A stretch of DNA of 60,000 nt from Candidatus Woesearchaeota archaeon (GCA_043819495.1 JBDRET010000030.1:71463-131462); one strand, 5' to 3'; counted from the first letter of the stretch, positions 14,382 through 33,487 are shown. Numbers and translations are program-made. The notes: generated by a model not told the origin, from the sequence alone.

Positions 14382-14548
14382 CAGAGCCGCGCCCTACTTC
14401 GCTTTGCTCACACAGTTCGCAAAGCTCTCGTGCCGCCACGCACGCAGGAATTTGTCAAACGTGGTTTTCGCCGAAGGCGTACCTTATTTATTGATTATTT
14501 TTGATGGATCGCTAGCGTGCTGATCAGGCGGCAACGGTCGCGACTCTG
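14382..14548. repeat. structured intergenic repeat, copy A
   Basis: Nested inverted repeats cagagccgcg/cgcgactctg, gctttgc/gcaaagc, tgccgcc/ggcggca, gcacgc/gcgtgc; homologous to 33335-33487. Confidence 0.75.
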
Positions 14549-14632
14549 CGTAATGGCAAAATAGGGTGTGATTATATTGCTTTGACTCTACATTAGAAAC
14601 CAATTTATACTACGACAACCATATTATTTCTC

Positions 14633-14989
14633 ATGGAAACCAAACAGCAGGTAACCAAGAGACTTGTAGCAGGGGTAGTCATAATCATATTCTCATTTGT
14701 TCTGGGTAAGATATCATTGATACCTCTTTTCTTCCCTGGTGCTGCATGGAAGATATCTGCGGTATCGATCTACACTGCTTCATGGCTGCTGCTTGTTACC
14801 GGATTATTACTTGCAGGAGTCGAAGGATTCAGGCTTGCTACGCACAAGTACAAGGAATATCATCATAAGACTGTGCATCAGGTGAAGCAGCACAGCAGGA
14901 ATGCTGTCCGACACACAGCCAATATAATTAAACATCCTATAACACGATCCAAGAGGCTTGTCAGGAGAGCTACAAGGAAGGGCGAGTGA
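14633..14989 (+). CDS. small membrane protein
   Basis: Two hydrophobic segments and a basic C-terminal tail. Confidence 0.7.
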   Translation: METKQQVTKRLVAGVVIIIFSFVLGKISLIPLFFPGAAWKISAVSIYTASWLLLVTGLLLAGVEGFRLATHKYKEYHHKTVHQVKQHSRNAVRHTANIIKHPITRSKRLVRRATRKGE

Positions 14990-15099
14990 CTTTTCTGTCC
15001 CACTCCTGACCATGTTTACATATAAGTCTTTATAAATAAAGGGCGCTTTCTACATCTCATCTGGCAATATTGTCAGGATCATATGTACTGGAGGTAAAA

Positions 15100-15390
15100 A
15101 TGGCAATCAAAGAAGTCAAATCAACAAGACCTGAAGCAGTTAGACCTGCAGCTGGCGGAGCAAGCAAGGACGAGCAGGTAGGGTTCCACAAAGGAGCATT
15201 ATCAACACTTGCAAAAGAGAGGGAAGAGATGCTGAAGATATTGAGCATTGTCGAACAGCTTATGCAGATGCACGTCGCAGCGCTCAAAGAGCTTGGTGTT
15301 GACCTTGAGAAGATAGCAAAGCAGGCAGCAGCTTCACAGTCTCAGGCTAAGGGTGGTAAATCAGTATCACTTGAGAAATCACTCAGGTAA
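15100..15390 (+). CDS. small coiled-coil hypothetical protein
   Basis: GGAGGT RBS; T-rich terminator-like tract after the stop. Confidence 0.75.
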   Translation: MAIKEVKSTRPEAVRPAAGGASKDEQVGFHKGALSTLAKEREEMLKILSIVEQLMQMHVAALKELGVDLEKIAKQAAASQSQAKGGKSVSLEKSLR

Positions 15391-15562
15391 TTTTTATTTT
15401 TTAAGTTCAATTTTTTCAGTTAAACACACAAAAAAGGGCGTTTCTCAGTATAACATTCAGGTCACAGATGTCACACTATCGGATATTACATCAAAATAAT
15501 GCTTAAAAGCACAGTTCACATGATATGTTCCGGGTGGTGATTAAGTCACACCTAAAACGATC

Positions 15563-16243
15563 ATGAGGGATGATTATATGACACAAGAAAAACAAGAAGA
15601 TCCTGCAAGACAGGTGTATGATTCAGGAGTAAAGGCTGCAGCAAGGCTTGATAAGGAGTATGGACGGAAAGCGAACGTCATACAGAAGGCATATGAGGCT
15701 GCGGTAGATGAGCTCGGCTACTCGGATAAAGAGCTCTCGGATAAGTCAAAAGCAAAGAAAATCGCAAAGTTGATGTTCAGCGATAAGTATCTGGGCAATG
15801 CAGGATTCAACCCGCTGCTGAAAGAGAGTTCACTTTACCAGGACTTTGAAAAGAAAGATGATATCGAGAAAGGGCGTCTGTACGAGCACATGCTCGGGAT
15901 GAATGTCGACACTTTAGTCAGAGGGACAATAGAGCAGTATGGTGGTCTTAAGAGAAGCGGACTTGTCGCTGCAGTCGACAGGCATTATAACAACAAGGCA
16001 GCACAGCAGCTCATGGCTCTTGCATGGCAGAAGGCATACGATCCTGATAAGTCACTTGAGCAGAACATGAAGAGCTATGTGGATGCATTGAGCCAGGATC
16101 CGATAATATCAGGTTCTGGAGCAAAGATCAATCCAGGGAAGTTTGAGAGCATCGATGATGCGGCACATGCGCTCACTACTGCTTTCAGAGGTCAGTCCAC
16201 AAGGGACAGCTATCAGTATGATCATGGAGTGGATTTCAACTAG
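15563..16243 (+). CDS. hypothetical protein
   Basis: 226-aa ORF, 2 bp from the next gene. Confidence 0.7.
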   Translation: MRDDYMTQEKQEDPARQVYDSGVKAAARLDKEYGRKANVIQKAYEAAVDELGYSDKELSDKSKAKKIAKLMFSDKYLGNAGFNPLLKESSLYQDFEKKDDIEKGRLYEHMLGMNVDTLVRGTIEQYGGLKRSGLVAAVDRHYNNKAAQQLMALAWQKAYDPDKSLEQNMKSYVDALSQDPIISGSGAKINPGKFESIDDAAHALTTAFRGQSTRDSYQYDHGVDFN

Positions 16244-16245
16244 AG

Positions 16246-17292
16246 ATGATGCAACCAGATATCAGCTACAGGAAGATTGAAGAGGAGAAGAGACAGTCCT
16301 CAGGAGATTTCAGTAGTAGGTACTCTGCAGGGAACAGGAATCGTGAAGAGCTCGCTTACAGGATAGAGAAAGAGATCTCATCAGAGCTCCAGCCGCCATT
16401 GCAGGACATGATGTATGGTATGGCAAGGAGTCTGACAGACACGATATATAGTGCGAGCGCTGAACAGCAGTTCCCGACCAGGAAAGAGTCGATGGATTAC
16501 TTCGATAAGCAGTTCATGGGCCGAGAGATACGGCGTGTCAAAGGTAACCTGACACAATACGTGCGGGACGCATTTGGCACAGAGGATGACCGTGAAGTCA
16601 ACAACCTGCGCAGGAACGTGTACAGGAAAGTTGAACGTTATGGGCTTGGGGATATTGTCGATGAGGCACGTCCCTGGAAGAACACATTGCTTGACGATAA
16701 GATAGCAAACGCGACATACCTGAAGCCTGACAGCGTCGAGAATTCTCTTGCATCTGCACTATCCAGCTACAAGGAGATAATACAGCCTTCGCTATACGAT
16801 AGCATGAGCTCAATGATAAAGGAGAAAGCACCAGTCATTGCAGAAAGGCTTGCAGGTTATATGCCGACTCCTGCAAACAGGCTCAATCAGATGCTGCAGA
16901 GTACAGAAGGGATCACCAACTACAAAGAAGCGAGTCACGTATTTGAGAAGCAGTTGGTATATGGTGCGCTTGAGGCAGCAGGATTTGACAAGAATAAAGC
17001 TGCAGGTTATCTTGGTGATTCACTAAGGACACTTAACAGGCGCATAGAGGAACTGGGGATAGATGCAAAGCCACAGAAAGGACAGGCAAGAGAAGCAAAG
17101 GTAGTAAGCATAGAAGATTCTGTAAAGAGCAAAGACAGTGATAAAGCATCTGCACCAGAGAATGCGGTGAATGAGATGGAACGCTTCCAGCAGCTTGTGA
17201 TCCAGTACAACAGCAAAAGAGAATCAGAAAGGAAGCGAAAAGACATACTTAAAGACAAAGTGCGACATACTTCTATGAGTAAGGCTGCTTAA
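16246..17292 (+). CDS. Fis-type HTH protein (one intact and one interrupted Fis-like unit)
   Basis: FEKQLVYGALEAAGFDKNKAAGYLGDSLRTLNRRIEELGI; colinear similarity to 25904-26539. Confidence 0.7.
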   Translation: MMQPDISYRKIEEEKRQSSGDFSSRYSAGNRNREELAYRIEKEISSELQPPLQDMMYGMARSLTDTIYSASAEQQFPTRKESMDYFDKQFMGREIRRVKGNLTQYVRDAFGTEDDREVNNLRRNVYRKVERYGLGDIVDEARPWKNTLLDDKIANATYLKPDSVENSLASALSSYKEIIQPSLYDSMSSMIKEKAPVIAERLAGYMPTPANRLNQMLQSTEGITNYKEASHVFEKQLVYGALEAAGFDKNKAAGYLGDSLRTLNRRIEELGIDAKPQKGQAREAKVVSIEDSVKSKDSDKASAPENAVNEMERFQQLVIQYNSKRESERKRKDILKDKVRHTSMSKAA

Positions 17293-17418
17293 GAATCAGG
17301 CAGGTATATCCTTTCTAGGCTGTCTGTTTCTGGATCGGTTATGTTATTATTATCTCTGTCAAGTATGAACAAAGTTTATATAAGGAACAGCAGTAGATGG
17401 ATTCTAGAGATGACTGAC

Positions 17419-17639
17419 ATGAAAAAACATTGCTTTTAGGATTATCGATGCTCATGCTTCCTTCTGTTCTCGCAGACTATGGGGACATGATGGGCGGATA
17501 CGGGATGATGGGCGGAACAGGATGGTTTGGTATGTTGCTATTGGGCCTGTTATACCTGGCTATAGGAGCATTCGTGTTCTCAGTGGTATTCTGGTTGACA
17601 CACAACTGGCTTGTGAAAGGAAAACATAAGAATAGGTGA
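17419..17639 (+). pseudogene. small Met/Gly-rich membrane protein, frameshifted in an A6 run (or alternative TTG start at 17430)
   Basis: Adding one A to ATG AAAAAA CATTG restores the signal peptide MKKTLLLGLSMLMLPSVLA, followed by MMGGYGMMGG and a TM helix. Confidence 0.6.
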
Positions 17640-17643
17640 AAAT

Positions 17644-17892
17644 ATGACGAAAGATGGATTGAACGCACTTGCATTAGGATACGCATCAGCAAGCATCTCT
17701 GCAGCAGGTATGTTGCTTTTAGGCATACTGGGCAATATGGGCTTATACATTGGTGCTGCCGAGATGATGAGGCAATGGCACATGTTCTTTTCCCTCAGCA
17801 TAGGAGGGATAGTAGGCGGGATGATAGAAGCGGCAGTCATAAGTTTCGTGTTCATGTATACCTTCGGATGGGTGTATAATAAGTTCATCTGA
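17644..17892 (+). CDS. small membrane protein (DUF5676-like) in a copper cluster
   Basis: Hydrophobic 82 aa; WHMFFSLS...GGMIEAA. Confidence 0.6.
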   Translation: MTKDGLNALALGYASASISAAGMLLLGILGNMGLYIGAAEMMRQWHMFFSLSIGGIVGGMIEAAVISFVFMYTFGWVYNKFI

Positions 17893-17922
17893 GTCGCACG
17901 TTAAAAAAAAGAGGTTAAATAA

Positions 17923-18612
17923 ATGCACGAGTGGTTGACATTTTCAGCAATACTGTTAGGGATATGGTTTATACTATATATAGCTAAGCCGATACTTAGG
18001 AAAGAGATGTTCTGGGTTAGTTTGTTCACGATGCCTTTTGGCTTGACGGAGCCCTTGTTCGTTCCTGAATATTGGAGTCCGCCCTCTTTGTTCAATCTCG
18101 CCGCGAGAACAGGATTTGATATTGAAAGCCTGATATTCTGCTTTGCAGTAGGCGGAATCGGGGCCGTGCTGTATGAAGCTGTTTTCAAGGTAAGTCACCA
18201 GAAGGTGAGCAAGGAAGAAATACACGGCAAGAGGCACAGGGTCCATAAGCTCGCTTTATCATCACCAGTTATCGTATTCCTGCCTTTGTATTTCCTTACT
18301 AGCCTGAACCCGATCTATTCAGCAAGCATCGCAATGTTCATCGGGGGGATAGCTGCGATACTTTGCAGACCTGACCTAAAAAAGAAGATATGGATTGGAG
18401 GATTATCGTTTCTTATCCTTTACTTTGTGTTCTTCTTGTTTTTCAATCTTGCTTATCCGGGGCTGGTTCAGGAGGTCTGGAACCTTTCAGCGATTTCAGG
18501 AATACTTATCTTAGGAGTTCCCTTGGAAGAATTGATGTTTGCATTCACTTTCGGGATGCTGTGGTCAAGTGTCTATGAGCACGCATCATGGTACAAGTTG
18601 AAAAATATATGA
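17923..18612 (+). CDS. lycopene-cyclase-domain-like multi-TM membrane protein
   Basis: Two repeats ending DIESLIFCF and GVPLEELMFAF; multiple TM segments. Confidence 0.7.
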   Translation: MHEWLTFSAILLGIWFILYIAKPILRKEMFWVSLFTMPFGLTEPLFVPEYWSPPSLFNLAARTGFDIESLIFCFAVGGIGAVLYEAVFKVSHQKVSKEEIHGKRHRVHKLALSSPVIVFLPLYFLTSLNPIYSASIAMFIGGIAAILCRPDLKKKIWIGGLSFLILYFVFFLFFNLAYPGLVQEVWNLSAISGILILGVPLEELMFAFTFGMLWSSVYEHASWYKLKNI

Positions 18613-18691
18613 AATGGTGAGAGAAGAAACAATAGATGTAAAGAATACTAAATCTTAACAAAGCAGGCAGTTCAGGATCAAGGAGGGAAAA

Positions 18692-20776
18692 ATGGCCAGA
18701 TACAAATGTCCAAAATGCGGGATGGAGTATGACAAGCCAGGCAAATGCACAATGGAGGGTGCTACGCTTGTCAAGGTAGGGGATGAAAAATCCCCTCACC
18801 ATCCCTCTGAACATGCAGGTCACGACCACAGTAGACACCATGAGATGATGGTCCAGGATTTCAAGAAAAGGTTCTTCGTATCAATCGTACTGACGATACC
18901 TATTCTTGTCCTGTCTCCTTTGATACAGAAGTTCTTAGGCTTCACTGTTGCATTTACAGGAGACAAATATCTGCTTTTCCTTCTCTCAGCAGCGGTATTC
19001 TTCTATGGCGGATGGCCATTCATCAAAGGATTATTCACAGAACTGAAGGGCATGGCTCCGGGCATGATGACTCTTATAGCATTGGCTATAACGGTTGCTT
19101 TCGTCTACAGCGGTGCTGTCGTGTTCGGCCTTACTGGCAAGGTATTCTTCTGGGAGCTTGCCACGCTTATAGATATCATGCTTCTTGGGCACTGGATAGA
19201 GATGAGATCGGTCATGGGAGCGTCCAGGGCGCTCGAAGCTCTTGCCAAGCTCATGCCTTCAGAGGCTCATCTTGTCAAGGGGAATAGTACAGAAGACGTG
19301 CCGATATCACAGCTTGCCAAAGGGGACATAGTTCTTGTCAGGCCGGGTGAGAAAGTGCCTTCTGATGGAGTGATAGTCAAAGGTGCGACCAGTGTAAATG
19401 AGGCTATGCTTACAGGAGAATCAAAGCCAGTAAACAAGAAGAAAGGAGATAAAGTCATCGGCGGTTCAGTGAATGGTGAGGGAGCTATACATGTCAAAGT
19501 CACGCATACGGGAGAAGAGTCATACCTATCACAAGTGATAACTCTAGTTAAGCAAGCTCAAGAGTCGAAGTCAAAAACACAAGATTTAGCGAACACCGCA
19601 GCAAAGTGGCTCACAATAATATCTATATCTGTTGGAACAATAACACTTGTGTCATGGTTATTCTCTGGGAAGGATTTTGCTTTTGCAATTGAACGAATGG
19701 TCACAGTCATGGTCATTACCTGCCCACACGCACTAGGTCTCGCAGTACCTCTCGTAGTAGCAGTATCTACATCACTCTCAGCTAAGAATGGGCTTCTCAT
19801 AAGGAACAGGACGGCATTCGAGAATGCCAGGAAAATTAATGCTATAGTGTTTGACAAGACGGGAACATTGACAAGAGGAGAGTTTGGTGTTACAGACGTC
19901 GTTACGTTGGGAAATAACAAAGAGAAAGACGTGCTTCACTATGCAGCCTCACTTGAAGGTAATTCAGAACACCCAATAGCAAGAGGAATAGTGAACAAGG
20001 CTAAGAAAGAGAAGATAGCACAAGGCAAAGTTAGCAATTTTAAGGCATTGCCGGGAAAAGGCATACAAGGCAGCATAGGTAAGAAGAAAGTTATGGTAGT
20101 AAGCCCTAACTATCTGGACGAGAAAAAGATCAAGATGACTGACGAAAGGATCAAAAAGCTTTCTGAGCAGGGGAAGACTACGGTTTACGTCCTTTCACAA
20201 GGCAAGTTAGTTGGTGCTATTGCGCTTGCAGACCTCGTCAGAGAGGAATCAAAAGAAGCGATAAGTAAGTTGAAGTCCATGGGAATCAAATGCATGATGC
20301 TTACAGGAGATAACAAGACGGTCGCAGAAGCAGTATCAAAAGAACTAGAGCTTGATGACTTCTTTGCAGAAGTCCTTCCACACCAAAAATCAGAGACGAT
20401 AAAGAAAGTTCAATCACAAGGATTTAACGTAGCGATGGTAGGAGACGGCGTGAATGACGCACCAGCACTCGTACAAGCTGATGTAGGGATAGCGATAGGT
20501 GCAGGCACAGATGTTGCTATAGAATCCGCAGACATAGTGCTTGTGAGGAATGATCCAAGAGATGTAGTATCAGTTATAAGACTGGCGAACGCTACCTACA
20601 GCAAGATGAAACAGAACCTACTGTGGGCCACAGGCTACAACGTCTTTGCAATACCACTCGCAGCAGGAGTCTTATACCCTTACGGAATCCTACTTAGCCC
20701 TGCAGCGGGTGCAGTACTGATGTCTCTAAGCACAGTTATCGTAGCGATAAACGCGAGATTCTTATCGATGAAATAG
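18692..20776 (+). CDS. copB: copper-exporting P1B-type ATPase (CPH subtype)
   Basis: TGES, CPHAL, DKTGT, SEHP, GDGVNDAP; N-terminal CPKCGM...PGKC and His-rich segment. Confidence 0.93.
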   Translation: MARYKCPKCGMEYDKPGKCTMEGATLVKVGDEKSPHHPSEHAGHDHSRHHEMMVQDFKKRFFVSIVLTIPILVLSPLIQKFLGFTVAFTGDKYLLFLLSAAVFFYGGWPFIKGLFTELKGMAPGMMTLIALAITVAFVYSGAVVFGLTGKVFFWELATLIDIMLLGHWIEMRSVMGASRALEALAKLMPSEAHLVKGNSTEDVPISQLAKGDIVLVRPGEKVPSDGVIVKGATSVNEAMLTGESKPVNKKKGDKVIGGSVNGEGAIHVKVTHTGEESYLSQVITLVKQAQESKSKTQDLANTAAKWLTIISISVGTITLVSWLFSGKDFAFAIERMVTVMVITCPHALGLAVPLVVAVSTSLSAKNGLLIRNRTAFENARKINAIVFDKTGTLTRGEFGVTDVVTLGNNKEKDVLHYAASLEGNSEHPIARGIVNKAKKEKIAQGKVSNFKALPGKGIQGSIGKKKVMVVSPNYLDEKKIKMTDERIKKLSEQGKTTVYVLSQGKLVGAIALADLVREESKEAISKLKSMGIKCMMLTGDNKTVAEAVSKELELDDFFAEVLPHQKSETIKKVQSQGFNVAMVGDGVNDAPALVQADVGIAIGAGTDVAIESADIVLVRNDPRDVVSVIRLANATYSKMKQNLLWATGYNVFAIPLAAGVLYPYGILLSPAAGAVLMSLSTVIVAINARFLSMK

Positions 20777-20831
20777 AGTGGTTACGAGCAGAAAATCAAA
20801 GATTTTTGAGCTTACAACCTGCTGATGCGAG

Positions 20832-21015
20832 ATGGCTAAGACAAGAATGATCCTATTCAGGGTAAGCCTCATAATACAAGAGTATCATGAACAACGCTCA
20901 AGCTAAAGGACATAAGACGATGGCTAGTTACCTGAGAGATGTATCGCTGAATAAAGACCGGGTGTTCGAGAGAAGATTTGACGAGATGTACAAAGCGATT
21001 GTGGGAAAAAGATAA
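20832..21015 (+). pseudogene. frameshifted small ribbon-helix-helix (MobC/CopG-like) DNA-binding gene
   Basis: MAKTRMILFRVS in one frame, then YKSIMNNAQAKGHKTMASYLRDVSL...GKR* in another. Confidence 0.45.
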
Positions 21016-21126
21016 TAGCATTGGCCTGTTAAATTTTATTTAGGCACATCTCCTGCTCCTGTACCAACAAGGTTCATTGTTCAGTGAATAAAAACATTAA
21101 AAAATGCTATTTGCAGTTGTTTGTTT

Positions 21127-21894
21127 ATGGTAACAATAGCGCACATCTCAGACTTGCACTGCGGCAAGACAGGTTTCAAGTCCAAGAAGCTTTCAGCATG
21201 TATCAAGGAGATAAACAAGCTCAAGCCAGACGCTGTTGTAGTGACTGGAGACCTGACACTCAATGGATACAAGAAAGAATATGAGATGGCTAAGAAATAC
21301 CTCTCAAAAATCAAGCCCAAGACACTGATAATCCCGGGTAACCACGATTCCAGGCTCTGTGGGTATGAGTATTTCGACGAGTTCTTCGGCTACGGGAACA
21401 CTTCGCTTGACATAGGAAGCATCCACATAATCGGTGTCGACACTACTGTACCTGATCTTGATGAGGGTAATATAGGAAGAGGCAAGCTGCGCTGGCTTCT
21501 GGATGAGCTTGAGAAGCGTCCTAAGGATGAGTTGAGGATTGTCGCGATGCATCACCATCTCGTGTCTGTCCCTAGGACCGGCAGGGAACGCTCCACTATA
21601 TCTGATGCTGGCACAGTGCTTCATGCCCTTGTCAATGCAGGTGTTGATGTCGTGCTCTGCGGTCACAAGCACACGCCTCATTCATGGCTTGTGGATACTC
21701 TTGCTGTGGTCAATGCTGGTTCTGTATCTGCTGTAAAGTTAAGGGCAAATGTCCGCAACAGCTACAACATCATCAGGATAGCTGACGGCAACATAGAGGT
21801 TCTTCTGAAAGAGACCGGTAAGAAGCCGAAGCACATGGTGAGCTATGTGACTTCCAGTTCTGAGAGAGGGATGGTTGTGAGCAGGAAGAGTTGA
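21127..21894 (+). CDS. calcineurin-like metallophosphoesterase (CpdA/Icc-like)
   Basis: SDLH, TGDLT, PGNHD, MHHH, GHKH motifs. Confidence 0.9.
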   Translation: MVTIAHISDLHCGKTGFKSKKLSACIKEINKLKPDAVVVTGDLTLNGYKKEYEMAKKYLSKIKPKTLIIPGNHDSRLCGYEYFDEFFGYGNTSLDIGSIHIIGVDTTVPDLDEGNIGRGKLRWLLDELEKRPKDELRIVAMHHHLVSVPRTGRERSTISDAGTVLHALVNAGVDVVLCGHKHTPHSWLVDTLAVVNAGSVSAVKLRANVRNSYNIIRIADGNIEVLLKETGKKPKHMVSYVTSSSERGMVVSRKS

Positions 21895-21940
21895 GACACC
21901 AGTTCGATGTGCTGCGGAAAAATCGCTTCTTGACACCTCT

Positions 21941-22231
21941 TTATTGCTTTTTCGTCTTCTGGAATGCCTCTTCCATCAGTTCCATCTGCATCTGCTGTAT
22001 CTCGAGGAGCCTATGCCATTGGTTTGAGAGCAGCTGGTCTACCTTCCAGTTGAGGTGGCGGATCATGAGCTCTGAGTTGAGGTTTGTCTTGTAGTCCTGT
22101 TCTGACCTCATGCGGTCCTTGGCCTCCTGCCTGTTCTGGCTCATCATGATGACTGGTGCCTGGATGGCTGCAAGGCAGGAAAGTACTAGATTCAATAGTA
22201 TGAACGGGTAAGGATCGAATGGTCTCGCCAA
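21941..22231 (-). pseudogene. DUF1003-like membrane protein, C-terminal fragment
   Basis: FDPYPFILLNLVLSCLAAIQAPVIMMSQNRQ signature with the N-terminal part missing. Confidence 0.75.
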
Positions 22232-22551
22232 CAGGACGGTTTACGACCTTCTTTTGAAGCATGCGCTGTCTCCTAAGACAGTCTACACCTGGTTTCTTCT
22301 TGAGCGTACCCCGCATCATGTAAAGGACACAAGACCCTATCAGGTTACCTTTGGGATATTGCGCTGAATAAGGATATGATTTTCGAACAGAGATTCAATG
22401 AGCTGTATCATGTTATTGTTGAAAATGATCCTGGTTTGTCAAAGAAGGATAAATCGGAGATTATTCAAAATAACTAATTAAATGTACAAATTTTGTACTT
22501 ATTTATACAAAAATAGTAATATTTATATACTAGTTATGTTTCTATCTTATT

Positions 22552-24457: not shown

Positions 24458-24543
24458 TTTTTGAAAAGATTTTTTGTTCGTACTGTTGAGCTTAGTGAAA
24501 CAGTACTGGGTTCGCGTGTGCACGGAGCGATGCCGTGCCGCGT

Positions 24544-24565: not shown

Positions 24566-24652
24566 ATTTAACCCAAGAAATCTCTATTTTATATTTAAAT
24601 CTTGACTTGTTGGCCTGACTATTTTTTATATTCCATCAGATTCCCTTGCATT

Positions 24653-25144: not shown

Positions 25145-25150
25145 ATGATA

Positions 25151-25372
25151 TTATTTCTTCTTTTTAGGTTTCCATGTCCCTCTGTGTTCTTTCACTGCAA
25201 GTGTGGCAAACACTGCAAATAGGAATGCGACAACAACGATGAGGAAGAACAGCACTGCAGCCGCCTTGATGAACACCGGACGACCAGTAAGTATGCCTAA
25301 GATCCCGATGATTATCAGGAAGAATCCGAGTATCTCTGCAGTTATGAGCGTGTGTTTAGTCTTTTGTCTCAT
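25151..25372 (-). CDS. small two-TM membrane protein
   Basis: Two hydrophobic helices; overlaps the upstream GNAT gene. Confidence 0.65.
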   Translation of the reverse strand: MRQKTKHTLITAEILGFFLIIIGILGILTGRPVFIKAAAVLFFLIVVVAFLFAVFATLAVKEHRGTWKPKKKK

Positions 25373-25907
25373 ATTCTGACCTTAACAGACCAAATCGTCT
25401 TTCATCATGCCATTTATTATTGTGGAAGATGTGTCTTCGTAGGCAGCCTTCATCTTTGAATCCTGCTTTCATCAGTAGACCTGAAGATGCATCATTGTGA
25501 TAAAATGTCCTTGCGTACATCTTCTCAAATTTAAGTTTCTTAAAACCGAATTTAAGCAGCAAGTTTAATGATTCTCGTGCATATCCGTTTCTCCAGAACT
25601 TTTTGCCGATCCAATATCCTATCTCTGCATTCTTGTGCTTTTTGCTGATATTGCATATTCCCATTCCGCCGATGAGCTCGTCGGTTTCTTTGAGAAATAT
25701 GGAGAATAAGTATCCGGTATCTTCGCGCAGTTTTTTTTGGACCATGTGCTTTATGTACCACTCGCCATCTGATCTTTTGTACGGATGAGGTATGGTATCC
25801 ATGAACCTGACTATGTGCTTATCATTTATGTGTGTTTTTATTGCATCCACATCTTTCATAGTAGGTATCTTAAGATATATCCGTTCCCCTTTCAGCACAG
25901 TCTTCAT
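25356..25907 (-). CDS. GNAT N-acetyltransferase, RimJ/RimL family
   Basis: AEIGYWIGKKFWRNGYARE, NDASSGLLMKAGF. Confidence 0.9.
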   Translation of the reverse strand: MKTVLKGERIYLKIPTMKDVDAIKTHINDKHIVRFMDTIPHPYKRSDGEWYIKHMVQKKLREDTGYLFSIFLKETDELIGGMGICNISKKHKNAEIGYWIGKKFWRNGYARESLNLLLKFGFKKLKFEKMYARTFYHNDASSGLLMKAGFKDEGCLRRHIFHNNKWHDERRFGLLRSEYETKD

Positions 25908-26539
25908 CTCAGCTTCAACCCCTTTACTTTCCGCAATAATGTCTCATACCGAAGACCGATCTTCTTTGATGTCTTGGTGAGGCTTCCACCATTATCTGCA
26001 AGAGCTTTCTGTAAGTACTCGCGCTCGAATTCCTCTTCTGCTTTCTTGAGTGTTACGCGTTTATCAGGGAGTCCATCAAGGATGTCTTTTGATACTGTAT
26101 CCACCTGCTTGTACACTTCTGCCATCCGTGAAGGATGTATGATCTGCTTGTAATGCTCAAGCACATCTTCGATGACACTGCCTACTGCTTTCTGTCTTAT
26201 CTGGTATGGTTTGATCATCTCATCCCGCATGCGGGCGACATCGATGCCTGCAGATTTCACTATCCGGTGTATGCTCCTTCGGTCGACTCCTGCTTTCTTT
26301 GCGACAACAGATATGTTACCATAGCTGACTCTCAATAATCGTCTGAGGAATTGTTGTTTGAACTGCTTCTTTGCTTTCTTGAACCTGACCTTTGTATCTA
26401 TATCGAATAATAGTAATGGGCTGCGCTCAAGCTTCGCAGAGATATCCTTATTCAGCTCACCTATACTGATCCCTAGAATTGGTCTCATAGCATCATCTAC
26501 TATGTGTTCCATGCTTTTCTTGATGGGTTCTTCTTCCAT
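25904..26539 (-). CDS. tandem double Fis-type HTH protein
   Basis: FKQQFLRRLLRVSYGNISVVAKKAGVDRRSIHRIV and FEREYLQKALADNGGSLTKTSKKIGLRYETLLRKV. Confidence 0.85.
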   Translation of the reverse strand: MEEEPIKKSMEHIVDDAMRPILGISIGELNKDISAKLERSPLLLFDIDTKVRFKKAKKQFKQQFLRRLLRVSYGNISVVAKKAGVDRRSIHRIVKSAGIDVARMRDEMIKPYQIRQKAVGSVIEDVLEHYKQIIHPSRMAEVYKQVDTVSKDILDGLPDKRVTLKKAEEEFEREYLQKALADNGGSLTKTSKKIGLRYETLLRKVKGLKLR

Positions 26540-26735
26540 GCTGAAACTCTGGTTTTCCGGCTTTATAAAGGTTTTTGTACATAATGTTTATAAATAAGTT
26601 CATTCAAACAATCACCACTATTGGGCAATGACTAGGTCTACTAAGGTGATAAATATCACCACACAATCATAAATACATCTTTGGCAATGCTGTGTACAGG
26701 CGTTACTGAGCAATTATATGGTGGTATGATACAAA

Positions 26736-29486
26736 ATGAGCTTACATGATAATCTGACAAGATTGCTGCTTCCGGGTGTGAAGAATAGCAAGGAGAAGAC
26801 CGATCAGGTCATTGAGGTAGTGAAGAGAGTTGCTGAGACCAACAACACCACTGCGGTGTCTGTCCTCCGTAACCTCCTTCAGCTATCTACTTCTAAGGAT
26901 GTATTTGATGCTGTCAGTGAATGGAACCCTATAGGATACTATGAGGCACCTAAATCTGATGCTGGCAGGCGCAAGGCAGAAGTGCGTGGCACTTTGTATG
27001 GTGCTGCACTCTGTGATGCTTACACTCTACAGAACACCCATGATCCTTCCCGCATAATACATGTGGGAGACACATTATACAGGAGGCTTGTCTCTGACTT
27101 CCGTGATTTTGGCAAGCCCGAAGAGCAGAAACTGCTCTCCGACGAAGTTGTTGAGAAAAAGAAAAAGGAGAAGCAGAAACAGCTTGATAATGTTCTTAAG
27201 AAACCAAGGGACACATTAGATGAGGTCCTCAATGAGCCTAAGAACAGGAGAGAGTTGGAGAAGATAGACGCTATAGGACTTCTTGATGATGAGATACGCA
27301 GACGTATCGCGATGCTTGATAAGATTTCCCAGGCACAACCAGAGATGGGTGATTCAAGGGATCATGCAGGTGTGATAGATGATTATACTGAACATCTTGT
27401 ATCTCTTGAGAAGAACCGTGGTTTCATGAGCTGGTTTGGTGATGAATTACGTGCAGGGACATTACCTGAGCAGATAGCAGGGATGTACCTGAAAGCGCGT
27501 GATGACATATTGGATATGGCGCAGTGGGAATCCACTGCACTTTTCATCTATGCTGCGAAGAACAGGCGTGTGATGCGGCGTGCTGTCGTCGGGAGCATAG
27601 AGGATGACCTTAAACTGCTGGAATCGCTTCCATCTGATCATCCTTTGATCAAGAAGTACGGTGCAATTGACCTGACTCCCATAAGTGATCTCTTGGGCAA
27701 GAAAGCAATAACACTTATTGATGCGACGAGGATACTCGACGTGCGTCCGGATATAATCGACATCCGTCAGGAGACCAATGCCGAGGTGGAACGTAGTTAC
27801 AAAGAAGACATATATTCTATACTCGATAAGGTCCGTCCTATATTCATGACTGACAGGTTCCTTTGGCATGAGGAATTCAAGGATGGCAGGAGTGAAGAAC
27901 GTACTAGTCGTACCTTGTACGCAAAGACTTTCAATAACAGGGATTATACTCAGATAAAGAAGGTGCTCGCACGGGCGACGATAGGTGTCGGTGATGTTGT
28001 GCAGAACCTAAGGACAGGGTATTCGATAGGAGAGTTCAGTCAGACCATAGAGGATCTTGTTGTCCTTGGCAGGCGCATGAAGCTTGTTGAGAACATTGCC
28101 AGAGCACAGGAATTGCCTGTCGGTGACGTGTATGATGTTGACCAGAAGACTCTGGACCGTATCGATGTCGCACAGATGTCTAAGGTCAGTGTGCGTGACA
28201 AGAAAGGCAACCTGAAATATCATCCTGCAGAGCACTTTGTGTCACACCCTAAGAATAGTTCAGGTCTTGATCTGGCAGAGATGGTTGCGATGTTTGATGT
28301 CGCTAAAGTAGGTTCACTCGGCAATTTCCATTATCATCAGTTCAAGGAGACGCATTTTCCGAGGATCAGGATGCTGGCAGATGTCGGGCTTTTCCATGAA
28401 GATGATGTTGAACGGCTTGAACAGTATTTCCGTACTGTGAAAAGTAAGGTAGTGTCAGGCAGTTCCGAGGAGATCGGCATTTTCCGGAATGCGATAGAGC
28501 GTGCCCGTGACAATCCGCTGATGGAGTTCATAGGTGAACTGCCTGCAAAGGGATTGAAGATGTACACTAGCGCTCAGGTCAAGGTTCTTGAGGCTGCATC
28601 AAAGGCGTGTGAAGCATTCTACTCTATGATGGATGATGTGGGCGGGCTTGAAGAGCATAAGAAGAGGCTTGCATTCCTCGAATACATAAAAACTGATTGC
28701 ACAGTCTATATCGGAAGGCAGCTCACAAGAGGATGTGAGATACATCGTGCTAAAATCGAGAATGATTCTCTGGTTCAGAAGTCTTTTGACCTCCCTGGAG
28801 CAAGATTTTCATTTGGAGGAGGTCTTCCTGTGAAGTATCTGTCTCCGCATAAGGTCCTTACTGCTGTCGAGAAGTTCAATGAAGAGCACAAGACCCTCGC
28901 AGATATATGTTCAGCCGATCCTCTGTTCCTTGATAGGCTTCACGATCTTGCAGGTGCTGATGATTTCATGCGTAAGAAGCTGATTGAGAACGGCAGTGCT
29001 TTCTATGGCAGTACTGGTGTCTATCTTAAGCAGGAAGCGATGGCTGCACTGCGTGAGATTGCGGGCGAAGGTGCACATGACAAGGTATACCTTTCAAACG
29101 ATCTTGCAGAAGTCGTCAATGGTATGCATTCAGAATTCCAGAAGTATCAGGAGGCCAAGAAAGTTGCTGTTGAAGCAGCACGGGCAGTGCAGGTTGCTCA
29201 AGAAGATGATGCAGTATCATCACCGATGACTGTTGAGACTCCTTCCGAATCTGCTAAAGAACCTATGTACACAGTGCTTGTCCCTAAAGGGTATGGCAAG
29301 TCTGCAACATACCAGCACAGGTATTACCTCGCACGACACCTTGGTATGACTTGGACAAGCGTAGGGTATAAGAAGCTTGACGTGACTGAGTCAGAGTTGG
29401 CTGACATGAGAGAACGGATACAGAAGCTGAACGAAGATAAGGGTTCACGGCTTACTGTGCGGGCAGTCAAGAGACGGGATCAATAA
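26736..29486 (+). CDS. large hypothetical protein (916 aa)
   Basis: Long ORF with no clear catalytic motif. Confidence 0.75.
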   Translation: MSLHDNLTRLLLPGVKNSKEKTDQVIEVVKRVAETNNTTAVSVLRNLLQLSTSKDVFDAVSEWNPIGYYEAPKSDAGRRKAEVRGTLYGAALCDAYTLQNTHDPSRIIHVGDTLYRRLVSDFRDFGKPEEQKLLSDEVVEKKKKEKQKQLDNVLKKPRDTLDEVLNEPKNRRELEKIDAIGLLDDEIRRRIAMLDKISQAQPEMGDSRDHAGVIDDYTEHLVSLEKNRGFMSWFGDELRAGTLPEQIAGMYLKARDDILDMAQWESTALFIYAAKNRRVMRRAVVGSIEDDLKLLESLPSDHPLIKKYGAIDLTPISDLLGKKAITLIDATRILDVRPDIIDIRQETNAEVERSYKEDIYSILDKVRPIFMTDRFLWHEEFKDGRSEERTSRTLYAKTFNNRDYTQIKKVLARATIGVGDVVQNLRTGYSIGEFSQTIEDLVVLGRRMKLVENIARAQELPVGDVYDVDQKTLDRIDVAQMSKVSVRDKKGNLKYHPAEHFVSHPKNSSGLDLAEMVAMFDVAKVGSLGNFHYHQFKETHFPRIRMLADVGLFHEDDVERLEQYFRTVKSKVVSGSSEEIGIFRNAIERARDNPLMEFIGELPAKGLKMYTSAQVKVLEAASKACEAFYSMMDDVGGLEEHKKRLAFLEYIKTDCTVYIGRQLTRGCEIHRAKIENDSLVQKSFDLPGARFSFGGGLPVKYLSPHKVLTAVEKFNEEHKTLADICSADPLFLDRLHDLAGADDFMRKKLIENGSAFYGSTGVYLKQEAMAALREIAGEGAHDKVYLSNDLAEVVNGMHSEFQKYQEAKKVAVEAARAVQVAQEDDAVSSPMTVETPSESAKEPMYTVLVPKGYGKSATYQHRYYLARHLGMTWTSVGYKKLDVTESELADMRERIQKLNEDKGSRLTVRAVKRRDQ

Positions 29487-29525
29487 TTTTATTTTTTATT
29501 CTATTTGTTTAGCTATTTCTGGCAA

Positions 29526-29666
29526 CACAGCCACCGCTCTTTGCGTGTCCTCTGTAAATATGAGTGTAATGGGCTGCACTTTTTCTGATATGTGCGTTTA
29601 TTGCGCAAGCACAGTATGGGTTGACAGAGGATAGCATGCCGACTGCGATGTAGCTGCGTGGCTGTG
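29526..29666. repeat. nested inverted-repeat element between convergent genes
   Basis: cacagccac/gtggctgtg outer pair and tcctctgt/acagagga inner pair. Confidence 0.5.
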
Positions 29667-29734
29667 GTTCAATCTTCGATTGAACCCCACAAACCGAAGG
29701 TTTGTCGTGCTATTATTATTCAGCTAAACAAATA

Positions 29735-30274
29735 CTATTGCAGGTTAAGGAATAAGAACGCCAGCCCAAGCACAGTGATCATCATGATCAGCCCTAATGC
29801 CTGTTTTGTGAAGAGAGGTGCAAAGTCTATCTTGACAGCATCTTCCTGCGGTGCGAAAGAGTCCGCAAACGAGACTGAGGTGTCCTCAAGCAGTTTTTCT
29901 CCGTAGACATGGCTTGCAGCGAATGCGATTATGCATATGACTGCTATCTTGAGCGCTATGCTGAATGGACCTACACTCTTGAGCATAGGCCATATCTTTG
30001 GCTTGTCCATCCCCAGTGTAAATAGGACTGTCGAAACTCCAAAGACAAAAAGGCAGATGAGCACAAAGAAAGGTATTCCGAAGCTCAGCATGCTGAGCAA
30101 TGGTCTGTATGCGATAAGTAATATCATGAAGATGATCAGTACCGGAAGTATGTATGCAGACTTGCTGTCAGAGAACATCTTCCGCTTGCTTAGCCATGCT
30201 TTGACCACTATGACTGTGACTACAAACGCCAAGAATAATGATATCGGATTGTCGCTGAAAAAAAATGTGGCCAT
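29735..30274 (-). CDS. multi-TM membrane protein
   Basis: About five hydrophobic segments. Confidence 0.75.
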   Translation of the reverse strand: MATFFFSDNPISLFLAFVVTVIVVKAWLSKRKMFSDSKSAYILPVLIIFMILLIAYRPLLSMLSFGIPFFVLICLFVFGVSTVLFTLGMDKPKIWPMLKSVGPFSIALKIAVICIIAFAASHVYGEKLLEDTSVSFADSFAPQEDAVKIDFAPLFTKQALGLIMMITVLGLAFLFLNLQ

Positions 30275-30472
30275 AACGCTTCCCCTAAAATTATATTATC
30301 CTTAAATTATATGGTTTCAGCCATTTATAAAATTAACGAAAAATCACCACTTACAAGTGACTATAAACCGAAAGGTTTATAAAGGGGTCTCGCCAAAACC
30401 ATCATAGAGCAATTTCTCAAGGTTCTGGATCTATGGGTAATATTTAAATAAATCTTGGTCAGATATACCTCC

Positions 30473-31363
30473 ATGAAAAAGAGGTTGAAGAACAAGATAG
30501 CTACATCTGATGCTGTACTTTCTCTGTATCCTATCCATGAAGCTATAGCTATCCTCGGCAAGACAGGCTATGATGCAATCGAGCTATGGGCCCAGAACCT
30601 TGATGTCCAGCTCTTGAATAAGAAGACTTCGATGGATAAGATAAAGTCTGCCCTGGAACAGGCAGGCATGACAGGTACGATCCACGCACCTCTCAAGAAC
30701 CTGTTCGCAAAGGAGCCATACAAGTATAATATCTGTTCTAAAAATGTCCGTCTGCGTATAGAATCCATACAGGCAAATCTTCGAGCCATAGACTATACAC
30801 ACAAGCTCGGCTTCAATGTCATAACCATACATCCAGGTCACACAGATTCTCCTGAAGACAAAGCAGACAATGAATACTGGAATCTTCAGATAGATGCATT
30901 CAAGCGTCTTGCACTGCATGCAGGAGAGTTTGGGGTGAAGATCGGCATGGAGCCGATGGAGCACAGGCCAAAAGAGTTTGTGATGGAACCTGCAGAGGTC
31001 GACCTCCTGATAGGTACAGTCGCTTCTGAGAATCTAGGCATAACATTTGATCTTATCCATGCTTACAGCCATGGTGTTGACAAGCCTGTAGAGTTCCTTG
31101 ACAAGATGCACAAGAACATATTCCATGTCCACATGAGCGGGCATTCAAAAGAGAAGAATCATGTGCCGTTCTCGATGACCATCATAGATCATCAGTATCT
31201 TGATGGTGTCCTCTTGAAGCTGGTAGACAAACATACAGAGATCATATCTATAGAGGGGACGATGAAAGGGCTTGTAAAAGAGACAAAGAAGAGTCAACAG
31301 GAGGTTGTCAAGAGCAACCTTGATTATATACACCGGGAACTGAAAGCACTTCACCTGGAATAG
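30473..31363 (+). CDS. sugar-phosphate isomerase/epimerase family TIM-barrel protein
   Basis: AIELW, IHAP, TIHPG, GMEPM, TFDLIH, FHVH, SIEG. Confidence 0.85.
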   Translation: MKKRLKNKIATSDAVLSLYPIHEAIAILGKTGYDAIELWAQNLDVQLLNKKTSMDKIKSALEQAGMTGTIHAPLKNLFAKEPYKYNICSKNVRLRIESIQANLRAIDYTHKLGFNVITIHPGHTDSPEDKADNEYWNLQIDAFKRLALHAGEFGVKIGMEPMEHRPKEFVMEPAEVDLLIGTVASENLGITFDLIHAYSHGVDKPVEFLDKMHKNIFHVHMSGHSKEKNHVPFSMTIIDHQYLDGVLLKLVDKHTEIISIEGTMKGLVKETKKSQQEVVKSNLDYIHRELKALHLE

Positions 31364-31377
31364 TCTTGATCAGATGA

Positions 31378-32154
31378 TCATATCCTGTGTCTTTCTTTCA
31401 TCCTGTCGATGCTGAACTCTATATTCTCAAGAAGAGCGCCATATTTCTTGTTGACAAGTTCGTGAACATTCTTCAGGCTGGTATGTATGAGGTCTTCATG
31501 GAGCAGTTTTCCATATTCGATGAGGTCATTTATGTGAGTCAGTTCCTCTTTATGTATTGTTGCAGAGAATAAGAACAGCTTTCCACCTGCGAAATGCACT
31601 TTGCCAAGAGTGTCAAGGACCTGTGCTTTATGTGCCTCCTTGTCATCGCTGAACATGTACTCGCGATAATTTACCTCGATGCCGACATCATTCTTTGCAG
31701 CATCTTCTGCATTCTGCGAAGTGAGCACGCCACCTTCTTTCTCAGGATGGCATAATAGATCAGAATCAGAGTCTGCACAAGTCACTCTGTTGGCATCAGC
31801 ATTCCCTCCATGTATGAATACCATGAAAGGCACATGGTGCACTTTCCCTTTATGATGTACAGGTATATACTTGCGCCCAAACTCAGATATCAGTCCAGGA
31901 AGCTTAGAATAATCACCATCACGGATTTTAAGCTCCACTGCAGGGAGCATGAGAAGACCCTCTTTCTCGAATATCTCAAAGTGTGACTCGAAGAATTTGT
32001 AGTAATTCTCCTTGTTCTTGACATCTTCACCAGAATTATGAGCATTGACGCCGACGACATAATAACCGTTCGCGACAAGCTCTTTTGCGACCTTTTCAGG
32101 GTCTTCTGCATCACGCAATATCTTGTTGTGAAGGTCGAGATATTTCAGGAACAT
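31378..32154 (-). CDS. RNase P subunit Rpp30-like (PHP-fold) protein
   Basis: YLDLH; IHGGNADANR...DLLCHPE...AAKNDVGIEVN resembles archaeal Rnp3. Confidence 0.55.
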   Translation of the reverse strand: MFLKYLDLHNKILRDAEDPEKVAKELVANGYYVVGVNAHNSGEDVKNKENYYKFFESHFEIFEKEGLLMLPAVELKIRDGDYSKLPGLISEFGRKYIPVHHKGKVHHVPFMVFIHGGNADANRVTCADSDSDLLCHPEKEGGVLTSQNAEDAAKNDVGIEVNYREYMFSDDKEAHKAQVLDTLGKVHFAGGKLFLFSATIHKEELTHINDLIEYGKLLHEDLIHTSLKNVHELVNKKYGALLENIEFSIDRMKERHRI

Positions 32155-32158
32155 GCAT

Positions 32159-32794
32159 TCACCTCAGGATGTCCTCAATATTCATGACATTGATGTCTTC
32201 AATTATCCTTGGACACATGGTGTTGATCCAGCATTCTATGAAGTTGAAGTTCTCTAGCTCAGAGTAGTTGAGCGTCTCTCCGATGAAGAAATAGAACTTC
32301 TTGTCAGGGAATTTCTCTTCAAGCGACTTGACTGCTTCCATGCTTGCCTGCACAGTGCTCTGTCCTTTTTTTGTGGTGACCAACACGCCGATCTTTTTTG
32401 ATGTGTGGAATTTGAGTAGCATCCCTTTCTTCTTTTTCTGTATCCTATTGATATCTTCATCATTCAATCTCTTGAGGATCATGTTGTTAGGGTCAAGAAC
32501 AAAGACAGGTTTCTTCACCTTTAGTGCCACGCCGATAGGATGGAACTCCCCTGTCCCGATATATAGGAACGCATCGACTTCAGACTGATGCTTTTCTGCA
32601 GCAGATGCGTCACATCCTAACACTTGACCCGCAATAACTGCCTGGATCTCTTTCTTCCACAGGAAGTCGACGACCTTCTTCATGTCTGATAGGTATTGTA
32701 TTGTCGTGACTATCCCTATCTTCTTAGGAAGTCCAGAAGTGTCAAACTCTACCTTGCCGAGTCCTGATTTTGCTTCTATGAACACTGTTTTCAT
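32159..32794 (-). CDS. dph2: diphthamide biosynthesis protein Dph2 (short form)
   Basis: TTIQY, GQVLGC, GTGEFHP, STKxGQ-like TTKKGQ, NTMCPRI. Confidence 0.85.
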   Translation of the reverse strand: MKTVFIEAKSGLGKVEFDTSGLPKKIGIVTTIQYLSDMKKVVDFLWKKEIQAVIAGQVLGCDASAAEKHQSEVDAFLYIGTGEFHPIGVALKVKKPVFVLDPNNMILKRLNDEDINRIQKKKKGMLLKFHTSKKIGVLVTTKKGQSTVQASMEAVKSLEEKFPDKKFYFFIGETLNYSELENFNFIECWINTMCPRIIEDINVMNIEDILR

Positions 32795-32831
32795 GTTACA
32801 AAAAGAATGTCGGTCGATTAATAAAGCTTTC

Positions 32832-33287
32832 TTACTTATGATATTCCCTTCCAGCATTTATCATATGTCCCCTATACACCTGCTCTAGAAGTATAAGCCG
32901 CACCATCTGGTGTGTGAAAGTCATATTTGACAAGGACATCTGCATATCTGCATTCTTCAATAATTCTTTTGATAGTCCCATCGGACCGCCGATGACAAAC
33001 GCGATATCGCATGAGCACTGTTCCATTTTCTTCAGCATCACAGCCATCTCTCCTGAGTCGATCTGCTTTCCGCAGGAATCAAGTGCTATCACATAGAAAT
33101 CTTTGATGTTCTTGAGGATCCTCTCTGCTTCGATCTTCTTGACGCGTTCAGAATCCTGGATTACTTTCTCTTCCCTGACCTCGACCAGTTCTATCTTAGT
33201 GAATCTGCCAAGTCTTTTGACATACTCTGCGAGGGCATCCTGCAGCCATTTCTCTTTTGTCTTTCCTACAGAGATTATGCGTATCAT
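32832..33287 (-). CDS. rlmH: 23S rRNA (pseudouridine1915-N3)-methyltransferase
   Basis: IISVGK, FVIGGPMG, SLSNMTFTHQMVRLILLEQVYR, YHK. Confidence 0.93.
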   Translation of the reverse strand: MIRIISVGKTKEKWLQDALAEYVKRLGRFTKIELVEVREEKVIQDSERVKKIEAERILKNIKDFYVIALDSCGKQIDSGEMAVMLKKMEQCSCDIAFVIGGPMGLSKELLKNADMQMSLSNMTFTHQMVRLILLEQVYRGHMINAGREYHK

Positions 33288-33334
33288 AACAAAGAGTGGT
33301 TTTTTGTGGATTAATAAATTTATCTTGTTTTGGT

Positions 33335-33487
33335 GTACTGAAACCTGCTTTCGCTTGGCAAGCCAAGCTCCAGAGCGCCGACGCACGCTCTAGGACGTAG
33401 ATTGAAGTTTCGTCGAAGGCGTTTTTTGATTATTGATTTGTTTTGGTAATTGGTTGGCGTGCTAATTGGCGCTACCGGTTTCAGTAC
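33335..33487. repeat. structured intergenic repeat, copy B
   Basis: gtactgaaacc/ggtttcagtac, gcttggc/gccaagc, agcgcc/ggcgct, gcacgc/gcgtgc; homologous to 14382-14548. Confidence 0.75.

Follow-up and report, generated by a model that had tools for sequence, protein, structure and literature searches.

Introduction

What are the two short, strongly folded intergenic segments that recur in a stretch of archaeal DNA of 60,000 nucleotides? The stretch, here called the window, belongs to a Candidatus Woesearchaeota archaeon (GCA_043819495.1, JBDRET010000030.1:71463-131462), and the segments are referred to as copy A (14382-14548) and copy B (33335-33487). An initial annotation had noticed paired changes in their stems and proposed two classes: an undescribed structured non-coding RNA (ncRNA), or a non-autonomous element structured as single-stranded DNA (ssDNA) and similar to REPINs or HUH targets. 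We assign a probability of roughly 0.6 to the reading that A and B are members of a non-autonomous, structure-dependent, genus-specific family of non-coding mobile or selfish repeats, about 150–200 nt long, of the Woesearchaeota (DPANN).

Three other explanations are weighed along the way. The copies could be paralogous genes for small structured RNAs, some 50 in number, or RNA elements that act in cis and are transcribed with their neighbours; the fold would be selected in place at each locus because it serves the host, for example by sponging proteins or by stabilising or processing transcripts. They could be a structural element of host DNA, comparable to REP/BIME sites, that binds nucleoid or topology proteins as a double strand or cruciform and spreads as a side effect. 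They could also be an RNA-mediated mobile or self-processing element, retrozyme- or ribozyme-like, that is copied by a reverse transcriptase. The distinction matters. DPANN genomes are very small and tightly packed, yet this genus carries dozens of folded non-coding repeats. Their covariation is so clean that the family is easily mistaken for a new RNA gene, and strong covariation among paralogous repeat copies is insufficient evidence for RNA function.

Results

An element family with a common fold

The genome that contains the window (G000; 1.68 Mb in 79 contigs, 88.9% complete) was searched by BLAST, by nhmmer and with a covariance model, R1. From a two-copy seed, nhmmer gives 46 hits in G000. 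A second round gives 60 hits, which merge into 53 loci of about 150–260 nt, and R1 matches 41 times. Around 30 of the 53 loci are full length, with a closing stem P1 of 10–19 bp, and about 20 are partial. The parts of copies A and B are as follows.

14382..14548, plus strand: copy A, full-length element, 167 nt; R1 score 152.1 bits including 17-nt flanks
14382..14394, plus strand: copy A, P1 5′ arm cagag-c-cgcg-c-cc; partner 14536-14548
14401..14425, plus strand: copy A, P2 side hairpin gctttgc / 11-nt loop / gcaaagc
14432..14437, plus strand: copy A, P3 5′ strand gccgcc; partner ggcggc 14527-14532
14440..14445, plus strand: copy A, P4 5′ strand gcacgc; partner gcgtgc 14515-14520
14469..14479, plus strand: copy A, P6 mini-hairpin cgcc-gaa-ggcg with C-GNA-G triloop
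14488..14496, plus strand: copy A, conserved unpaired word ttattgatt
14536..14548, plus strand: copy A, P1 3′ arm gg-t-cgcg-a-ctctg
33335..33487, plus strand: copy B, full-length element, 153 nt; R1 score 157.1 bits; orthologous spacer of the closest species (G008) without the element
33335..33345, plus strand: copy B, P1 5′ arm gtactgaaacc; partner 33477-33487
33353..33368, plus strand: copy B, P2 side hairpin gcttggc aa gccaagc
33374-33379, plus strand: copy B, P3 5′ strand agcgcc; partner ggcgct 33468-33473
33383-33388, plus strand: copy B, P4 5′ strand gcacgc; partner gcgtgc 33457-33462
33411..33421, plus strand: copy B, P6 mini-hairpin cgtc-gaa-ggcg
33430..33438, plus strand: copy B, conserved word ttattgatt
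33477..33487, plus strand: copy B, P1 3′ arm ggtttcagtac

The initial annotation described two intergenic segments of about 160 nt with a common architecture, and every stem it named is found in both copies. The closing stems are unlike in sequence yet paired (cagagccgcg/cgcgactctg in A, gtactgaaacc/ggtttcagtac in B); in A this stem extends inward over two mismatches to the innermost CC/GG. The covarying 5′ hairpin (gctttgc/gcaaagc in A, gcttggc/gccaagc in B) and the covarying stem that follows it (gccgcc/ggcggc and agcgcc/ggcgct) are verified, as is the gcacgc/gcgtgc stem, which is identical in A and B. The words tttcgYcgaaggcgt and ttattgatt occur in both. In the alignment, the mean column identity of A and B is 76%. 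Folded as RNA, the plus strand of A reaches -63.3 kcal/mol (z -3.52) and that of B -58.4 kcal/mol (z -4.16), with none of 200 dinucleotide shuffles as good in either case. The minus strands give z -3.75 for A (1/200 shuffles as good) and z -4.39 for B (0/200). RNA folds of A and B that are better than those of shuffles count in favour of RNA genes.

For 24 aligned copies, RNAalifold recovers P1, P3 and P4; the P6 mini-hairpin was added to this structure. Each copy consists of helices set one within another. P1 is a long closing stem whose sequence is free except for the innermost CC/GG, and P3 and P4 are GC-rich helices with almost invariant junction-proximal pairs. At the centre lies a module made up of P6, a mini-hairpin of C-GNA-G type, and TATTGAT, a word rich in A/T. 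Compensatory changes preserve four helices. Among the 669 pair cells of the 24 copies, 94.2% hold standard pairs compared to 78.4% in column shuffles (0/500 as high), in line with the initial proposal that the paired changes reflect selection on structure; with slid partners, 27–42% are paired. Double changes fill 121 cells, compared to 37.6 in shuffles. In an alignment of 89 copies from seven genomes, which was fitted to the model and hence leans towards the structure, 95.1% of 2369 cells are paired (75.8% in shuffles, 27–39% with slid partners). Here, 495 cells are double changes, compared to 147.8 in shuffles, and such changes occur in 25 of the 28 pairs. Loss of covariation in a larger set of copies had been named beforehand as an outcome against the claim; the signal becomes stronger from 24 to 89 copies.

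Conservation of at least 90% is almost confined to columns with junction-proximal G-C pairs in P1, P3 and P4. Invariant junction pairs next to variable distal stems are typical of functional RNAs, and this pattern together with strong covariation in four helices is an argument for RNA genes; a multi-helix fold with conserved junctions would also suit an RNA-mobile element. For a protein-binding DNA site, the conserved GC-rich junction pairs and the A/T-rich word could be protein contacts. The P6 loop reads C-GNA-G in 71 of the 89 copies (GAA 41, GCA 15, GTA 14, GGA 1), TTGAT is present in 62/89 and TATTGAT in 45/89. P2 is a hairpin at fixed distance after P1 whose stem sequence differs in nearly every copy, with a fold z below -2 in 45/88 copies and below -1 in 63/88. 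Some copies contain extra small hairpins. A fifth helix between P4 and P6 was considered and rejected, as no column pair there has consistent covarying pairing. The P1 arm GCAGCATCATG recurs at different loci, in three full copies and one truncated copy. Identical P1 arms at different loci indicate that P1 travels with the element.

The family is confined to one genus

Of the 11 genomes that represent genus g1 besides G000, 10 have R1 matches (9/10 leaving out the unpublished G003). Outside the genus, R1 matches 0/49 genomes, which are drawn from other genera in its family and order. R1 also finds nothing in one genus member that is 93% complete, and copy numbers across sister species range from 0 to at least 41 by this model. 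The empty 93%-complete genome counts against a family of RNA genes, and restriction to one genus with such variable copy numbers counts against a domesticated host site. In public species-representative genomes, the core pattern occurs in 14 stretches. By record title, thirteen of these belong to metagenome-assembled genomes (MAGs) of Candidatus Woesearchaeota or Nanoarchaeota and one to a Methanosarcinales MAG. The titles support the assignment to DPANN that the initial annotation had made. The core pattern has 0 matches in viral contigs. Many copies lie at contig ends, and the family breaks MAG assemblies.

At gathering thresholds, the only Rfam matches in the window are two tRNAs, and a search with 12 copies, both strands included and E allowed up to 1, finds none. 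A match to a known Rfam family was the other outcome named in advance as speaking against the claim; no family matched. The lack of an Rfam match counts against RNA genes. Within the same limit of E, no match to a known ribozyme model appears, which counts against an RNA-mobile element.

In the sister species G006, 36 of 37 R1 matches cover the central module alone (model positions ~75–143). This module (for example at L185, L189 and L194) lies within a larger G006-specific repeat with low-complexity flanks. About 100–150 nt downstream of it stands a second hairpin element, whose arms resemble the P1/P3 'shell' of G000 (CCTGCCTGYGC...GCRCAGGCAG), and on the opposite strand the module is traversed by an open reading frame (ORF) of 56 amino acids that looks spurious.

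Gain, loss and replacement between closest species

G008 is the species closest to G000, with gene flanks that are 75–87% identical. For other pairs of genus genomes the flanks are only 72–80% identical, so there is no closer pair for exact junctions. The spacer of copy B measures 237 nt in G000 and 52 nt in G008, where the element is missing, and the 5′ junction of this empty site is clear to ~6–8 nt. The spacer of copy A is occupied in G008 by another subtype with an unrelated P1 and in opposite orientation. Of 19 copies in G008, 12 lie at loci that are also filled in G000, four correspond to no copy or a remnant only and three are unresolved. Filled spacers common to both species would be expected from RNA genes as well as from a domesticated host site.

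The elements at a shared locus can differ. Orientation relative to the flanking genes is opposite at 3 of 13 shared loci, including that of copy A. Element pairs at shared loci are 51–77% identical, below their flanks, and the nearest relative of a copy is often found at a non-orthologous locus or in another species. Such differences in subtype and orientation at shared loci speak against RNA genes selected in place. In one shared pair (p7), the central 45 nt are identical; differences in P1, P2 and P3 are numerous, and each of them is compensated. Between G008 C202 and G000 C40, which have both locus and subtype in common, a C-G pair has changed to T-A with compensation, which favours RNA genes.

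Nested, split and truncated copies are frequent. In G000, a copy at C43:30526 sits inside the old arms GTCAAAGCC...GGCTTTGAC of an earlier copy, of the subtype that G008 keeps at this locus; copies on G008 C200 and G008 C209 are also nested. At C61:3737-6920 of G000 (L126 737-3920), an insertion sequence (IS) of ~3 kb splits one element copy, for which G008 has an intact copy of 141 nt. This IS has inverted ends starting CAGGGCA and two ORFs of note: one of 121 amino acids matches DDE_Tnp_1 in its C-terminal part, and the other is weakly HEPN-like. At C11:18512-18800 (minus strand), a full copy is followed by two tandem extra 3′ thirds, each reaching from the TTGAT start to the P1 3′ arm. A hairpin at C43:7643-7694 has a perfect stem of 16 bp and a 20-nt loop that begins with the junction word TCCTACTCC and contains CCTACTCC. 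Internal deletion of a copy may have produced it, or excision may have left it as a footprint; the G008 locus has nested full copies. Within the window, a spacer of 101 nt compares to ~200 nt in G008, where a full copy is found (G008 C215:548-746). By eye, an alignment of this spacer can be read as containing a remnant, for which there is no nhmmer match:

4135..4236, minus strand: possible decayed remnant, 5′-end-like piece

The many truncated, nested or interrupted copies are unfavourable to RNA genes, and tolerance of decayed copies to a domesticated site. Taken together, gain, loss, replacement and decay represent the behaviour of selfish DNA and not of a conserved gene set.

G000 and G008 also differ by an inversion of ~6 kb between C18:16616-16721 (plus strand) and C18:22723-22795 (minus strand; L128). 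One breakpoint lies inside an element at TTATTGATT, and an inverted repeat of at least 25 nt flanking the inverted segment was not found. Three 3′ fragments and one inversion breakpoint in G000 begin within a few bases of TATTGAT, which hints that this word is a site of breakage or joining.

Two insertion routes were considered and rejected. For insertion into pre-existing REP-like hairpins, a scan gave 59 perfect hairpins (stem of at least 11 bp, loop of up to 61 nt), of which none is an empty hairpin of P1 type except C43:7643-7694. A flank-copy model, in which the 3′ arm is an inverted copy of the 5′ flank, fails as a general mechanism due to the identical P1 arms at different loci. The empty G008 site does contain a word like the copy B 5′ arm, with 8/11 bases matching by eye, which by a rough estimate is compatible with chance.

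Placement without orientation bias and without target duplication

Copies are spread over more than 30 contigs, on both strands and with kilobase spacings. With ORFs called by a crude custom script, 47 of the 53 loci have no overlap of more than 20 nt with an ORF of at least 100 amino acids. Their contexts (18 divergent, 7 convergent, 12 tandem sense, 14 tandem antisense and two contig edges) are close to the mix of G000 spacers overall (480 tandem, 221 divergent, 138 convergent). This lack of an orientation rule speaks against a role as promoter, terminator or leader, and it disfavours RNA genes that need transcription from a neighbour; a cassette acting as promoter, terminator or untranslated region was rejected on this ground. 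Placement independent of orientation is in favour of a domesticated DNA site.

Borders were compared for 27 full copies. The best direct repeat at the P1 borders averages 1.93 nt, compared to 2.14 +/- 0.22 nt for re-paired flanks, so that no target-site duplication is detected in this set; likewise, neither a conserved 5′ flank nor a target word beside the copies was found. Without conservation of the 5′ flanks, there is no external promoter common to the copies, a further point against RNA genes. The outer part of P1 differs between copies, and there is no family-wide terminal inverted repeat.

Probable pairing at the level of DNA

The 2369 cells of the 89 copies contain 2227 Watson–Crick pairs, 27 G·T, 43 A·C and 72 other mismatches. 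Wobble pairs on the plus strand are thus no commoner than the mismatches that arise from a single transition on either strand. For helices selected as RNA it is unusual that wobble is as scarce as mismatches, and this finding fits pairing at the DNA level. It stands against RNA genes and, as a missing wobble signature, against RNA-mediated mobility; strand-symmetric Watson–Crick pairing is also what a domesticated DNA site would display.

In P1, A·C exceeds G·T by 30 to 12 among copies that are not independent, a weak hint that the minus strand is the folded one. The C-G-closed GNA loop reads so on the plus strand only. In DNA, GNA triloops with a closing C-G pair are known to form very stable mini-hairpins. 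We infer that a folded intermediate is more likely ssDNA than RNA.

Search for a mobilising gene

G000 encodes one Y1 transposase, a tnpA gene of IS200 type at the end of a contig (C47:88556-88900). It scores 108.7 bits with the IS200 model (cut-off 55) and 45.5 with the RAYT model, below the cut-off of 80. No RAYT gene was found in G000, and this sole Y1 gene has no adjoining element copy. The look-up for RAYT or IS200 TnpA suggested by the initial annotation therefore returns the second and not the first. Neither nhmmer nor R1 detects similarity to the element at the tnpA locus (C47:87–89 kb) or at the tnpB locus. The tnpB gene lies at C61:32299-32496, with an element copy 161 nt upstream of its start on the opposite strand; this is the only such pairing among the 53 loci. 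G000 furthermore has three DDE_Tnp_1 matches and a reverse transcriptase (RVT_1, C34:826-1473, in a frame of 422 amino acids) that is not adjacent to copies. RVT_1-type genes in DPANN are usually part of diversity-generating retroelements.

No autonomous parent emerges from G000 either: no unit of 0.35–8 kb is bounded by the 5′ and 3′ ends of the family, except for the IS-interrupted copy. Among the candidates, the additional 3.2 kb at C61 proved to be the unrelated IS that interrupts a copy, and the additional DNA at C24 consists of ordinary genes.

Surroundings of copies A and B and other hairpin repeats

Copy A is intergenic; it begins 1 nt past the stop of the ORF at 13439-14380 and ends 84 nt before the ORF at 14633-14989. 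Copy B is intergenic between two minus-strand ORFs. One of the listed frames, a GTG-start ORF at 32832-33386, overlaps it. Conservation with the G008 orthologue stops at the ATG at 33287-33285, which is probably the true start, and the gene would then not overlap copy B. Contigs from one metatranscriptome and three DNA runs that were compared to window positions 13900-33800 include none over A or B and are uninformative on transcription.

The window contains two further perfect hairpins between the genes for tRNA-Pro and tRNA-Ala, at 24304-24330 and 24341-24377, with stems of 11 and 12 bp. The first recurs identically at G000 C39:2461-2487 and near-identically at C30:154022. These hairpins could represent another repeat family or an unrecognised RNA gene. 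Other hairpin families exist in G000. An identical 33-nt hairpin, ACCACCAGTCT-loop-AGACTGGTGGT, has four copies (C30:199820, C48:7888, C71:9149, C72:54361), and stems on TCAAGAACC with variable loops are found at C8:10620, C9:2972, C24:25015 and C24:44902.

Discussion

The observations can be joined in one mechanism. The spread of copies would be slow and would pass by way of an intermediate with one strand folded back on itself, and a trans-acting enzyme would recognise the conserved helix junction. Only lineages that keep the fold would have propagated, so that the stems of subtypes differ yet remain complementary, and resident copies would then decay. New copies would often land in residents or replace them, which would keep the same spacers filled across species.

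Several findings weigh against a mobile family. No mobilising gene is co-distributed with the element: the element is present in 11/12 genus genomes, Y1_Tnp and the TnpB zinc ribbon in 2/12 each, DDE_Tnp_1 in 3/12 and RVT_1 in 5/12. Absence of a transposase is weak evidence here, since MAGs are incomplete and repeated genes often remain unassembled. Copy B is the sole clean empty site with good flanks, and its 3′ junction is blurred, with 42 nt that have no G008 counterpart, so that the boundaries of the insertion are inexact. The 12 of 19 loci common with the nearest species are what a conserved host function would give as well. Near-identical copies are missing in G000 (29 copies; maximum pairwise identity 0.82, mean 0.59), from which we conclude that spread is slow or old, with no sign of a recent burst. 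With DNA parameters, the folds exceed shuffles by a weaker margin (A z -1.48, 22/200 shuffles as good; B z -2.61, 1/200). The hints on the folded strand conflict, as the A·C excess in P1 points to the minus strand and the GNA loop to the plus strand. Finally, the choice of ssDNA over RNA is indirect, being based on scarce wobble, the lack of orientation bias and the general stability of GNA loops.

A more specific version of the mobile-repeat reading would make the family an archaeal counterpart of the REPIN principle: replicators that act as folded ssDNA, whose junction is read by an enzyme that is neither Y1 nor RAYT and is possibly host-encoded, that produce no target duplication, prefer to re-enter or replace resident copies and use TATTGAT as the site of breaking and joining. 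As a whole this combination is speculative and, on balance, rather unlikely.

RNA genes or cis-acting RNA elements are an unlikely explanation. The strong covariation, the filled loci common with G008 and the example of bcr1 of Bacillus, a transcribed repeat with similar properties (PMC3184786), are in its favour. The arguments from pairing (G·U as rare as mismatches, with 27 of 2369 cells compared to 43 A·C) and from tandem spacers without preferred orientation (12 sense, 14 antisense) run in the opposite direction, together with those from promoter region and truncation. The ncRNA proposal in the initial annotation is accordingly disfavoured.

A domesticated structural site is quite improbable. 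Strand-symmetric pairing and placement, filled spacers and possible protein contacts would all fit it, but the interior of the element is asymmetric, with P2 on one side only, and is therefore not a simple cruciform. We know of no protein that binds the element. RNA-mediated mobility is very improbable: RVT_1 occurs in G000 and in 4/11 other genus genomes, yet this amounts to only 5/12 genomes, the gene is not adjacent to copies, and neither a tail of poly-A or primer-binding-like type nor a bias in orientation is seen in the copies.

For the preferred reading of a mobile or selfish repeat family, the alternative in the initial annotation of a REPIN- or HUH-target-like element stands in kind: the family is genus-restricted, multicopy and intergenic, varies in presence and absence, contains nested and decayed copies and pairs almost purely by Watson–Crick rules. 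The specific REPIN/HUH link is not supported, with the sole Y1 gene being an ordinary IS200-type transposase present in 2/12 genus genomes. Should the element be a selfish replicator, minimal archaeal genomes too would be a place where mobile DNA that depends on structure, like REPINs, ERIC or bcr1, thrives, apparently without any transposase known to serve such elements, which points to a mobilising activity of another kind.

Comparison with known systems

REPINs are hairpin repeats with compensatory changes (PMC3116915). With their RAYT partners (Bertels & Rainey 2011, PMC3116915), they resemble the element in several respects: they are short, non-coding and intergenic and number in the tens, both arms of their long hairpin show compensatory changes, the target site is not duplicated, a lineage retains them at the same loci for long times, and their recognition as folded ssDNA has been proposed. 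Unlike REPINs, the element has an asymmetric interior of four or five helices instead of two inverted REPs, G000 has no RAYT gene that we could find, and the host is an archaeon and not a bacterium.

The repeat bcr1 of the Bacillus cereus group (PMC3184786) has ~155 bp and a multi-stem fold with compensatory base-pair changes, is flanked by 5-bp direct repeats and is transcribed. Both are multicopy repeats of similar length and compensated multi-stem fold, with a distribution that is not conserved between relatives. In contrast to bcr1, the element has no detectable direct repeat in the 27 full copies, and the two are not related in sequence.

[quoted passage not shown] In contrast to these DDE-transposase-derived MITEs, the element has neither fixed terminal inverted repeats nor target-site duplications, no parent IS with matching ends was found in G000, and it is the junctions of the inner helices that are conserved, not the termini. 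In a MITE census, a Woesearchaea genome is among the most MITE-dense archaea, with 105 MITEs per Mb (PMC11602168).

Elements derived from IS200/IS605, PATE-like and moved as ssDNA by Y1 TnpA, share the lack of target-site duplication and the dependence on hairpins, and tnpA and tnpB genes of this type exist in G000. They differ in that the element has no similarity to the tnpA and tnpB loci and no conserved 5′ target word, and the transposase genes occur in only 2/12 genus genomes. Integron attC sites form one-orientation cassette arrays beside an integrase, whereas copies of the element are dispersed on both strands.

Since the element lacks the target-site duplication and fixed termini of MITEs, the RAYT of REPINs and the direct repeats of bcr1, we place it among the small structured intergenic repeats without making it a member of any one kind. 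The best reading is a non-autonomous selfish repeat that is similar in kind to MITEs or REPINs.

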